A DNA stretch of 64,000 nucleotides from Escherichia phage vB_EcoM_SP1, in sequence record MT682709.1; one strand, given 5' to 3'. The position numbers and the translations under genes are program-made. The notes below the pieces were generated by a model, which worked only from the letters and a program-made list of their open reading frames with translations, made no database searches and was not told the DNA's origin. How positions within the stretch are numbered: the stretch's first letter is position 1; each line of letters opens with the position of its first letter. Of the stretch, positions 3,790 to 43,664 are shown one piece after another.

Positions 3790-4033
3790 TATTCATCATC
3801 CTCGTCTTCGTCATCTTCGTCAGAGTCTTTGTCTTTTTTGTCGTCTTTATCATCACTATCTTCGTCTTCATCATCCTCGTCTTCAGGTTCTTCACCTTCG
3901 ATTAAGAAATTACGAGCGATAGCGATTTTTTCTTCTTTAATTAAATCAATCGTTCTTGCAGCCATGGCTTCAGCAAATAATTTACGAGCGGCTACGAGGT
4001 CGTTTGATTTAATAGCTTCAATTAAACCTTCCA

Positions 4034-8307: not shown

Positions 8308-11448
<3,141 letters not shown>

Positions 11449-39627: not shown

Positions 39628-40430
<803 letters not shown>

Positions 40431-40908: not shown

Positions 40909-41169
40909 ATGAAAATGTATCAAGAATTTATCGCTGAAGCAGATGCCAAAGGCCCCAAATTTAAAGTTAAAGCTTTCGTTGGTGATGCAGAAGATTTTGG
41001 CTCATTAAAACGTAATGGGTATTCTTTCCTAGGCGGCGATGGTAGAGAAATAAACACCTATGCAAAACGTAGTGAAATTGCTTATGTTGTAGCAAGCCCT
41101 AAAGTAGATGTTGACGATATTGGATATGATTTTAACAACTTCGGAATTATTTCTGGCGGTAAAGCTTAA
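40909..41169 (+). CDS. internal-protein-like ORF with capsid-targeting sequence (MKMYQEFIAE/A)
   Basis: 86 aa; CTS plus (I/L)xE cleavage site. Confidence 0.65.
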   Translation: MKMYQEFIAEADAKGPKFKVKAFVGDAEDFGSLKRNGYSFLGGDGREINTYAKRSEIAYVVASPKVDVDDIGYDFNNFGIISGGKA

Positions 41170-41232: not shown

Positions 41233-41811
41233 ATGAAAACGTATCAAGAATTTATTGCTGAAGCTTCTGTAGTAAAGGCAAAAGGCATTAATAAGGACGA
41301 GTGGAACTATCGTGGTGGAAACGGCTTTGACCCTAAAACTGCTCCACTTGAACGATATCTAGCCACAAAAGCTTCTGATTTTAAAGCCTTCGCTTGGGAA
41401 GGACTTCGCTGGCGTAACGATCTAAATATTGAAGTTGACGGACTTAAATTTGCTCATATTGAAGATGTTGTTGCTAGTAACTTAGATGCAGCTTTTGTTA
41501 AAGCCGACAGTGATCTTCGTCGCTGGAATTTAAAACTGTTCTCTAAACAAAAAGGCCCGAAGTTTGTGCCTAAAGCCGGTAAATGGGTCATTGATAATAA
41601 ATTAGCTAAGGCTGTCAACTACGCTGGTCTTGAATTCGCCAAGCACAAATCATCATGGAAAGGTCTTGATGCAATGGCTTTCCGTAAAGAATTTGCCGAT
41701 GTTATGGCTAAAGGCGGCTTTAAGGCAGAAATAGATACCTCTAAAGGTACGTTTAAGGACGCTAATGTTCAGTACGCTTATGCCGTTGCTAATGCAGCCC
41801 GTGGTAATTAA
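41233..41811 (+). CDS. ipIII: internal protein III-like (CTS MKTYQEFIAE/A)
   Basis: 192 aa; T4 IPIII size and CTS. Confidence 0.7.
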   Translation: MKTYQEFIAEASVVKAKGINKDEWNYRGGNGFDPKTAPLERYLATKASDFKAFAWEGLRWRNDLNIEVDGLKFAHIEDVVASNLDAAFVKADSDLRRWNLKLFSKQKGPKFVPKAGKWVIDNKLAKAVNYAGLEFAKHKSSWKGLDAMAFRKEFADVMAKGGFKAEIDTSKGTFKDANVQYAYAVANAARGN

Positions 41812-41852
41812 TAAGGCCTAAGTATAGGCCTATTTACATTTAAAGGAAACAT

Positions 41853-42155
41853 ATGAAAACATATCAAGAATTTATTACTGAAGCGCGAGTGAGTGCAGGT
41901 AAATTAGAAGCCGCTATAAATAAAAAGGCCCATTCATTTCACGATTTGTCCGATAAAGACCGTAAGAAACTTGTAAGCCTTTATATTGACAAAGAGCGTA
42001 TTCTCGCTCTTCCTGGCGCTAATGAAGGTAAACAGGCCAAGCCTTTGAATGCTGTCGAAAAGAAAATTGATAACTTTGCTTCTAAATTCGGTATGTCTAT
42101 GGATGACCTTCAGCAAGCGGCTATCGAAGCAGCTAAAGTAATTAAAGGTAAATAA
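41853..42155 (+). CDS. ipII: internal protein II-like (CTS MKTYQEFITE/A)
   Basis: 100 aa; T4 IPII size and CTS. Confidence 0.7.
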   Translation: MKTYQEFITEARVSAGKLEAAINKKAHSFHDLSDKDRKKLVSLYIDKERILALPGANEGKQAKPLNAVEKKIDNFASKFGMSMDDLQQAAIEAAKVIKGK

Positions 42156-42187: not shown

Positions 42188-42427
42188 ATTCATAATTACT
42201 TAGAGAGGTAAAATGACTCGATGAAAAAATTTTAATGAAGCCACACTGGTATAAGTATTAAGGCAAAAATATTTACATTCAAATAACATGGGAACAACCT
42301 GGACCTCATGATTCTATGAGGGATTCCCGCCAACCTGTAATAAGGTCGAGCCCAAGTGCGGTAATGGGTAAATACAGAAATGGACAATTCATGTGCCATG
42401 GAATGGCCCAAATTTAGAGAGAATAAA

Positions 42428-42967
42428 ATGAGAACATTTTTAACTGGACCTTATCTATCCCTGATGAATGCTTTTACACACCATTCTGATGCTAGAGTAG
42501 AAGAAATTTGTAAAAACGATTATATCCCACCATTTGAAGACTTACTCAAACAGTATTGCACACTTCGACTAGATGGTGGACGTCAATCCGGTAAATCAAC
42601 TGCAGTAACTAATTTTGCCGCTAATTGGTTGTATGACGGTGGAACAGTTATTGTTCTTTCTAATACTTCAGCTTACGCTAAAATTTCTGCGGGCCACATT
42701 AAAAAAGAGTTTTCTCGTTATTCTAGCGATGATATTCGATTCCGCTTATTTACCGATTCTGTCCGTAGTTTTATCGGTAATAAAGGAAGCAAGTTCAGAG
42801 GTTTATCGCTTTCGCGGATTTTGTATATAATCGATGAGCCTGTTAAATCTCCTGATATGGATAAAATTTACGATATTCATATTGAAACTGTGCACCACTG
42901 TTGCAATAGTAAATGCTGCATTGGTGGTATTACTCGTCCACAGTTTTTCATAATCGGAATGCAATGA
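42428..42967 (+). CDS. P-loop NTPase with C-terminal Cys cluster
   Basis: Walker A GGRQSGKST, Walker B-like ILYIIDEP, HHCCNSKCC; ATG 42428 follows an RBS-like tract. Confidence 0.55.
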   Translation: MRTFLTGPYLSLMNAFTHHSDARVEEICKNDYIPPFEDLLKQYCTLRLDGGRQSGKSTAVTNFAANWLYDGGTVIVLSNTSAYAKISAGHIKKEFSRYSSDDIRFRLFTDSVRSFIGNKGSKFRGLSLSRILYIIDEPVKSPDMDKIYDIHIETVHHCCNSKCCIGGITRPQFFIIGMQ

Positions 42968-43293
42968 TGACAGACACGCAACTTTTCGAATATCTTTATT
43001 TTTCGCCAAAAACTATTAAAAATAAATTGGTGAATCATTTTGAAATTTTGGCAAATAACAACGCCTTGAGCGAATTTTATCCTAAGCAATACAAATTACA
43101 AAAAGGCGTATTCAAAGGATGCAGAGTTTTGTGCACTGCTCCTAATGCAAGATTAATGAATAAAATTCCATATTTTACCATGGAATTTATTGATGGGCCT
43201 TTTAAAGGACTAATCACCCAAAGTTTAATGGCATATGATTCTGAGCCATTTTTAATTAAAGAACAATCTTGGATAAATTTATTTTCTAATTGA
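42964..43293 (+). CDS. hypothetical protein
   Basis: ATG overlapping the upstream stop; 109 aa. Confidence 0.5.
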
Positions 43294-43301
43294 GAGGTTA
43301 T

Positions 43302-43664
43302 ATGAAAGCATATCAAATTCTTGAAGGCACGCATAAAGGTACTATTTATTTTGAAGATGGTATTCAAGCACGAATTATTGTCTCTAAAACTTTTAAAGAG
43401 GACTCTTTTGTAGACCCAGAAATTTTCTATGGTTTGCATGCCCGTGAAATTGAAATTGAAACACAACCTACAGTTAAAATTGAGGGTGGTCAACACCTGA
43501 ACGTAAACGTTCTGCGTCGTGAAACTCTGGAAGATGCAGTTAAGCATCCGGAAAAATATCCGCAGCTGACCATCCGTGTATCCGGTTATGCAGTTCGCTT
43601 TAACTCTCTGACTCCGGAACAGCAGCGCGACGTTATCGCTCGTACCTTTACTGAGAGTTTGTAA
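43302..43664 (+). CDS. GrcA/YfiD-like autonomous glycyl radical cofactor
   Basis: C-terminal 60 aa carry the RVSGYAVRF glycyl-radical motif and are essentially identical to recalled E. coli GrcA, with host-like codons. Confidence 0.8.

Follow-up and report, generated by a model that had tools for sequence, protein, structure and literature searches.

Why do about a thousand sequenced T4-like phages keep a small P-loop protein without a known function? The question is raised by the gene vs.8, which we analyzed in a 64,000-nucleotide (nt) stretch of Escherichia phage vB_EcoM_SP1 (MT682709.1; hereafter the window). An open reading frame (ORF) on its plus strand, at 42428-42967, encodes a protein with Walker motifs and a Cys/His-rich stretch near the C-terminus. 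The SP1 gene is the ortholog of phage T4 vs.8. We propose with good confidence that its product is an early, stand-alone paralog of the ATPase core (N-subdomain I) of the large terminase gp17, and that the Cys/His-rich stretch is a loop and not a metal module. On this reading, vs.8 would be an early, second copy of the packaging motor's nucleotide-binding core, which bacterial immune sensors recognise. The protein also offers a handle on terminase-sensing immunity against T4-like phages and on the question of why these phages keep a protein that can betray them. In addition, the analysis removes the metal-module lead, corrects the probable start of T4 vs.8, and shows that published knock-down guides lie upstream of that start.

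Identity of the SP1 gene

The window belongs to a Tequatrovirus and is oriented opposite to the T4 map; its genes include lysozyme e, denV, several internal-protein genes, regB, vs.1, and vs. The original prediction had placed a 180-residue protein at 42428-42967. These coordinates hold, with the stop counted, and the length is corrected to 179 codons plus the stop. In a tblastn search, the protein was 93.9% identical to T4 vs.8 over all 179 residues, fell under the gene annotated vs.8 in phage ime09, and matched 1009 phage records; the DNA of the locus matched 818 phage records. Residues 3-179 matched PHROG 1488, a family of unknown function, with an E value of 4.4e-79. Furthermore, 35 T4-like genomes in IMG/VR share the order e..denV..vs.8-vs.7..regB-vs.1. 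T4 vs.8 (T4p119, UniProt P13318) has the neighbours vs.7, vs.6, regB, and vs.1 in common with the SP1 gene and shares its Cys-rich loop, which reads HYCCNSKCC in T4 and HHCCNSKCC in SP1. A full-length, high-scoring match and a conserved genomic position, the marks of the T4 vs.8 orthologous group, were both found, and the comparison with T4 vs.8 that had been suggested for this gene proved exact.

Database labels for the gene differ. In several GenBank records, e.g. that of phage HY01 (locus L001, 3581-6699), the label ‘endoribonuclease RegB domain-containing protein’ is attached to vs.8, vs.7, vs.3, and vs.1, and other records call vs.8 ‘toxin’ or ‘terminase large subunit’. We rejected the RegB label for vs.8, as BLASTP against SP1 RegB gave an E value of 9.2; the label probably derives from old ‘regB-denV intergenic region’ names. 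The ‘toxin’ annotation was likewise rejected.

A conserved terminase-type nucleotide site

All three motifs on which the original prediction was built, GGRQSGKST, ILYIIDEP, and the Cys/His stretch HHCCNSKCCIGG, are present, at residues 50-58, 131-138, and 156-167, respectively. Within the Walker A motif or P-loop (42575-42601, +), R52-Q53 fits the terminase-type P-loop RQxGK[ST]. The Walker B motif ILYIIDEP (42818-42841, +) supplies D136 and the catalytic E137. Upstream of it, R124-G125 (42797-42802, +) is a candidate arginine finger, by analogy with terminase ATPases. In 17 sequences, down to 40% identity, D49-G-G-R-Q-S-G-K56, R124-G125, and I134-I135-(D136)-E137-P138 were invariant or nearly so. 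Conservation was also counted across 92 distinct members of the vs.8 family, the set to which all residue counts below refer. The P-loop was kept at R52 in 91, at G55 in 90, at K56 in 86, and at S/T57 in all 92; R124 was found in 80 and G125 in 85, and the Walker B residues D/E136 and E137 in 85 and 83, respectively. The condition that would have marked the match as fortuitous, homologs lacking the Walker motifs, does not hold for this core family, where the motifs are kept in 83-92 of the 92 members.

Furthermore, the motifs were compared with random expectation. Walker A together with a Walker B-like motif occurred in 0.017% of 200,000 shuffles of the vs.8 protein, and among the 99 open frames of at least 100 amino acids in the window, only vs.8 and thymidine kinase contained both. 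Given this rarity and the conservation of the Walker residues across the family, a chance origin of the motifs is unlikely.

Predicted fold and kinship with terminases

An AlphaFold2 model built from a 17-sequence alignment (mean predicted local distance difference test score (pLDDT) 81.2, predicted template modelling score 0.81) showed a long N-terminal helix (residues 6-29) followed by a five-stranded alpha/beta domain. Walker A lay between strand 45-48 and helix 54-69, and ILYIIDE (131-137) lay on core-sheet strand 131-136, as in P-loop proteins of the ASCE (additional strand, catalytic glutamate) class. The fold of vs.8 is thus predicted to be a single RecA-like ASCE domain, and with the conserved Walker residues this bears out the earlier description of the protein as a minimal P-loop NTPase.

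Profile comparisons pointed to terminases. The PHROG terminase family phrog_2 was matched by vs.8 (E 4.9e-6) and, independently, by 23 of 36 family members (best E 3.9e-8), versus one of 36 for a helicase family. Weak matches to Terminase_6N were obtained for 17 of the 36 relatives (best E 1.4e-4). The terminase of the same phage, gp17, is encoded in the window at 8311-10143 on the minus strand (610 amino acids), and hhalign aligned a 36-sequence vs.8 profile to it with 92.4% probability (E 5e-7, 113 columns). In this alignment, the P-loop R52-Q-S-G-K56 pairs with R162-Q-L-G-K166 (gp17 161-SRQLGKT-167), R124-G125 with R245-G246 (in VRGNSF), and D136-E137 with D255-E256 (251-MIYIDE-256). The terminase-type active-site residues R52, K56, R124-G125, and E137 therefore align with gp17 R162, K166, R245-G246, and E256. 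The spacing is not identical: R124-G125 sits 13 residues before the catalytic Glu and R245-G246 sits 10 before it, so that the pairing needs a two-residue gap.

Several observations weigh against this assignment. Pfam Terminase_6N (PF03237) scored 15.0 bits for vs.8, below the gathering cut-off of 22. A one-pass profile search of 1.84 billion representative sequences returned only 51 proteins, all of at most 259 amino acids, and no terminase at E <= 0.001. Fold searches did not separate terminase from superfamily 2 (SF2) helicase domains. Moreover, a distant subfamily of six proteins (P0056, P0058, P0060, P0064, P0066, and P0069; 18-21% identity) shows G-H-[ST] instead of G-K-[ST] and D-[CV]-[AS] instead of D-E. 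With a His in the P-loop and D-E missing, ATP hydrolysis is not universal in the wider vs.8 family, and by their sequences the P0056-type proteins are probably non-hydrolysing. The C-terminal end of this subfamily is (F/M/V)-E. Judged from the profile search, the vs.8 family is small and separate from the true terminases.

Other searches were less informative. Foldseek against the Protein Data Bank (PDB) was unspecific, with SLFN11 as the top match (E 4e-4), and sequence searches of the PDB with the protein and the profile gave marginal matches to a DNA translocase coupling protein (E 0.03-0.07) and the signal recognition particle receptor. NCBIfam gave no match for vs.8, and a weak, generic AAA match to PtuA in PADLOC (E 0.004) was not used. 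In BFVD, comparable small P-loop proteins of about 145-175 amino acids were seen in other large myoviruses.

The similarity of RecA-like folds leaves room for another reading, in which vs.8 is a helicase-type or other nucleic-acid NTPase whose single RecA1-like domain takes part in early DNA or RNA metabolism together with a partner, e.g. vs.7. The RecA1 domains of the SF2 helicases Mfd, DDX1, and RIG-I showed 13-15% sequence identity to vs.8. However, helicases require a second RecA domain and motifs Ia to VI, none of which is contained in 179 amino acids; unlike the SF2 helicases, vs.8 has no helicase motif beyond Walker A and B. The profiles also favour terminase, in the PHROG counts as well as in the hhalign match to gp17, and vs.7 is missing from some genomes that keep vs.8. 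We therefore regard a helicase-type role as improbable and retain kinship with the gp17 ATPase core.

vs.8 is not a terminase in miniature, however. Compared with gp17 (ATPase domain, PDB 2o0h), it is one third the length and lacks the N-terminal region, subdomain II, the nuclease domain, and the TTT motif. Its last strand (172-176 in the model) lies in the C-terminal segment QFFIIGMQ (residues 172-179; 42941-42964, +), in which G177 is kept in 84 and the terminal Q179 in 78 family members. Element order would match this strand to the one that bears the coupling motif in gp17 (282-IIITTTP-288); the strand lies outside the hhalign alignment, which extends to residue 146. The coupling motif itself (gp17 T285-T287) was not found, as the equivalent vs.8 strand ends in G177-M178-Q179-COOH. 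Both the lid (subdomain II) and the RNase H-like nuclease domain are absent, since the protein stops at residue 179 after one five-stranded domain. Without them, vs.8 alone cannot be the packaging enzyme. In phage phi29, gp16 serves as a late packaging motor and docks on a packaging RNA and on the portal, which vs.8 is not known to do. It is a terminase-class ATPase without a nuclease domain (PDB 5hd9) and matched vs.8 weakly in Foldseek (E 0.024).

The Cys/His stretch is a variable loop

The original prediction had interpreted the Cys/His-rich tail as a metal-binding module fused to the NTPase. A version of this idea, in which a minimal NTPase carries a functionally required C-terminal zinc or iron-sulfur module, has some appeal: four Cys and two His fall within nine residues, CCxxxCC arose in just 0.004% of the 200,000 shuffles, and the CC pair plus a third Cys are kept in most relatives of 62-100% identity. 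In the model, however, the stretch (residues 156-167; 42893-42928, +) is internal to the ATPase domain: as a loop it links helix 143-158 to the last strand, pLDDT values fall below 50 at residues 160-167, and it does not form an independently folded module. Going by element order, the counterpart of this loop in gp17 is the short loop ahead of the strand with the coupling motif.

The ligands are not conserved either. The loop holds two to six Cys among the 22 relatives of at least 60% identity; among the 70 relatives below 60%, it holds none in 36, one in 31, and two in three. C158 is kept in 32, C159 in 29, C163 in 17, and C164 in 12 of the 92 members, and H156 and H157 in 12 and 18, so that no fixed set of four Cys/His ligands is shared across the homologs. 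The loops of P0004 and P0006 have CC alone. No zinc-finger or Fe-S family match was found in Pfam or NCBIfam. On this evidence, the proposed metal-binding module did not survive, and we consider a required metal module very improbable. The cluster is instead a loop decoration that evolves fast and is found in Tequatrovirus and close genera only. In Tequatrovirus, a metal or redox site particular to the lineage is possible, but the protein can be explained without one.

Length variation in the loop was seen within Tequatroviruses: the stretch reads HCCCCNIKCC, with six Cys, in locus L007 (4001-4540) and HCCCNIKCC, with five, in locus L005 (4001-4537). Expansion of the Cys run suggests slippage-like variation in the length of a TGT/TGC run. 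A match to the conotoxin I-superfamily (Pfam Toxin_19; 19.6 bits against a cut-off of 23.2) covered residues 156-177 only and was seen in one of 36 members; it was dismissed as compositional.

The start codon of vs.8

The vs.8 reading frame can be extended upstream, and databases differ in where they begin it. A longer frame of 195 amino acids from the ATG at 42380 is adopted by some GenBank records, and the T4 RefSeq entry (64253-64912) has 219. The extension lies in a frame in T4 that differs from that in SP1. Among 34 sources (33 loci and the window), the frame offset from the conserved upstream block to the vs.8 ATG was 0, 1, or 2, and in several phages no start codon was found in frame upstream of vs.8, nor was there a conserved start. 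The distant homologs all begin with M-(K/R)-x-(F/Y/L)-L-T. Because the upstream frames vary, no upstream start is conserved, and the distant homologs share this N-terminus, the analysis supports 42428, equivalent to T4 64792, as the probable true start of vs.8. The 195- and 219-residue forms were rejected on account of the varying upstream frames. Inspection of the aligned sequences showed a purine-rich stretch of the GAGA type 6-9 nt 5' of the ATG at 42428. The T4 RefSeq product thus appears to be over-extended by 40 codons, its extra N-terminus being a translation of the conserved element described below (window equivalent 42308-42427), an extension that the SP1 analysis does not support.

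Early expression, Avs2, and possible roles

T4 vs.8 is early at both the RNA and protein levels (Wolfram-Schauerte et al., 2022; PMC9697503 supplement), whereas gp17 is late. Among main-text literature matches for vs.8, the one relevant was a preprint (Evans et al., bioRxiv 10.64898/2026.04.30.721860, 2 May 2026), in which T4 proteins were screened with AlphaFold 3 against the immune sensor EcAvs2; the screen singled out vs.8, called there ‘an uncharacterized ATPase-like protein’. T4 vs.8 showed toxicity on co-expression with EcAvs2; it was reported to be homologous to the T4 terminase ATPase, Walker A and B included, and AlphaFold 3 placed it in the terminase pocket with a bridging ATP (interface predicted template modelling score 0.84). 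The authors suggested an anti-defence origin and stated that its role in infection was unknown (Evans et al., 2026). The terminase-ATPase-like class of vs.8 has therefore already been reported, and was reached independently here. Together with Ksap1 and Ksap2, T4 vs.8 belongs to the small non-terminase Avs2 activators with a terminase-ATPase-like sheet-and-helix fold (Evans et al., 2026). Activation was observed for the T4 protein, by co-expression; the SP1 protein enters the comparison as a sequence 94% identical to it.

What would such a protein do early in infection? It keeps the residues of a terminase-type nucleotide site (R52/K56/S57, R124-G125, and D136/E137) and would be expected to bind Mg-ATP and probably to hydrolyse it. 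Usually, the site of a lone RecA-like domain is complete only with a neighbouring subunit or a partner, and vs.8 would most likely act as an oligomer or with a partner. Tentatively, we favour a protein that acts early through protein contacts as a look-alike of the terminase ATPase, for example in anti-defence or in nucleic-acid handling with vs.7. Sensing by Avs2 would then be a cost of its terminase-like shape.

A purely non-enzymatic decoy is a related but rather unlikely reading. Here, vs.8 would mimic the ATP-loaded terminase ATPase and mislead Avs1-3, Upx, or other host factors, and hydrolysis would be irrelevant. That EcAvs2 is triggered by vs.8 and that vs.8 was modelled with a bridging ATP in the terminase pocket would agree with mimicry, as would the suggested anti-defence origin, expression long before the terminase, and the distant subfamily that lacks the P-loop Lys and the catalytic Glu. 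However, in the sole case tested, vs.8 activated the sensor and did not block it, which harms the phage, and 80-91 of the 92 members retain the P-loop Arg, the Arg-Gly pair, and the catalytic Glu, a degree of conservation that shape mimicry by itself would not call for. That the catalytic Glu and both Arg residues are strongly conserved speaks for real chemistry and not for shape alone. We therefore rank the look-alike acting by protein contacts first, the pure decoy second, and a nucleic-acid NTPase working with vs.7 third.

One published result counts against a role for vs.8: a T4 screen by CRISPR interference through antisense RNA targeting (CRISPRi-ART) called the gene ‘Not Fit’, that is, without a knock-down fitness effect under laboratory conditions (PMC11879866 supplement). 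The three vs.8 guides map to T4 64887-64937, near the start as annotated in T4 and 95-145 nt 5' of the start deduced above. As they lie upstream of this start, the call is weak evidence on vs.8 and may say little about the gene itself.

A conserved element upstream of vs.8

Directly 5' of vs.8, at 42267-42414 (+), lies a conserved, apparently non-coding structured element, which a covariance model recognized with 74 bits (E 1e-16). It comprises hairpin H1 (42304-42321), a core of 31 nt that is nearly invariant in sequence across T4-like genera (CCTGTAATAAGGTCGAGCCCAAGTGCGGTAA; 42334-42364), and the hairpin GCCA-TGGAA-TGGC (42395-42407). The element was also found at 2863-2988 in locus L002 (T4) and at 3838-3983 in locus L009. 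Of 37 sources (36 loci and the window), 34 contained the core, 33 of them with zero to three mismatches and one with seven, and it was kept even where vs.8 is only 37-44% identical. A second conserved block, TGYGCCANGGAAYGGCCC, falls in three different reading frames among phages, and the indels are not multiples of three.

The three-hairpin covariance model recovered the element in 27 of 28 sources. It also detected second, tandem copies in L012 (3716-3833 and 3851-3973) and L023 (3723-3840 and 3858-3980), and a weaker one in L024 (3430-3576 and 3866-3978); in all three, the second copy ends about 10-20 nt 5' of the vs.8 ATG. The database protein P0033 (246 amino acids) is an ORF call that reads through tandem copies of the element.

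In the alignment that resulted from the model, 95.6% of cells pair and nine pairs show compensatory changes, a number reached in 0 of 500 shuffles, and the covariation score was 0.134 versus at most 0.053 in slid controls; because the alignment was fitted to the model, these counts lean towards structure. Single-sequence folding was no better than for shuffles (z 0.17 and -0.04), and Rfam gave no match to the element at any E value up to 10. Conserved U-G pairs speak for the plus strand; folding energy does not decide the strand. A single long, rod-like hairpin suggested by one local alignment was not reproduced on alignment A5 and was dropped; Tequatroviruses keep the 3' half of that hairpin and replace its 5' half.

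The element was found by blastn in 1021 phage records, compared with 1009 records with vs.8. In 33 IMG/VR contigs, of 116-177 kb except for one 14-kb fragment, the core occurs once per genome, as it does in the window. A host origin was not indicated: blastn found no match to the element in E. coli genomes, and the core had no match in representative genomes of 185,579 bacterial and archaeal species, one per species. Campylobacter phages were named in the hit lists.

The core is not restricted to T4-like phages. It was found in 118 records of Vequintavirinae, within a mini-element that is about 100 nt long and has a compensated H1 (CACAU/AUGUG), and in 45-kb coliphages. The short element lies at 1467-1555 and 1467-1567 in the Vequintavirus loci L071 and L073 and at 1495-1532 in L072, from phage Ivi (44.9 kb). 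In Vequintavirinae and the 45-kb coliphages, the core does not adjoin a vs.8 homolog; in phiWec189, it is located upstream of a sigma-70-like promoter-like site, near a tRNA cluster. The view of the element as a strict vs.8 leader is weakened by the Vequintavirus core, which does not adjoin a vs.8 homolog and lies upstream of a promoter-like site. Since the core is found away from vs.8 in other phages, the element probably forms an RNA module of its own and is not strictly a leader of vs.8.

That the vs.8 locus holds a previously undescribed structured RNA is a real possibility, to which we give slightly less than an even chance. Such an RNA could act as a regulatory leader or as a small RNA, controlling the terminase-like ATPase or working with it; its hairpin loops, conserved and containing GGA, would also suit a site bound by a host RNA-binding protein. 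No description of the element was found in the available literature, which is itself incomplete; a 2023 catalogue lists more than 10,000 candidate viral RNAs (PMC10690425), and the element could be included there without a name. Should the link to vs.8 hold, an early RNA-plus-ATPase module would be present in one of the most thoroughly studied phages. The conserved non-coding element and the connection to Avs2 immunity add interest to the locus, and the element deserves a study of its own.

Neighbouring genes

vs.7 (42964-43293, +; 109 amino acids; PHROG 2049, unknown function) follows vs.8 directly. Its start ATG overlaps the vs.8 stop in ATGA, an arrangement by which vs.7 is probably translationally coupled to vs.8. 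Of 37 loci, 31 had vs.7 after vs.8 (29 at E <= 1e-3), and no match was obtained in L014, L018, L032, L033, L036, and L037; in L018 and L037, vs.7 is absent and vs.5 comes directly after vs.8. We dropped vs.7 as an informative partner because it had nine database matches, mostly fragments, and its AlphaFold2 model was unusable (pLDDT 45.8).

On the other side, the gene upstream of vs.8 is an internal-protein gene in SP1 and denV in T4; in SP1, denV lies between the internal-protein genes and e, whereas in T4 it directly precedes the vs.8 region. Four plus-strand genes of the window (40149-40430, 40909-41169, 41233-41811, and 41853-42155) start with MKTY(Q/S)EF, of the T4 capsid-targeting type. 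The set includes IpIII-like and IpII-like proteins in an order unlike that of T4. After the IpIII-like gene, a perfect terminator-like hairpin, AGGCCTAAGTATAGGCCT, is present at 41814-41831. Similar hairpins, each followed by ATTTACATTCAAATAA, flank internal-protein cassettes in the relatives L006 and L007, and the hairpin in SP1 looks like a cassette boundary.

Further downstream, vs.6 (43302-43664, +) contains the glycyl-radical motif RVSGYAVRF and is labelled ‘glycine radical domain-containing’ in GenBank. We take it to correspond to T4 Y06I, an autonomous glycyl-radical cofactor like E. coli YfiD/GrcA.

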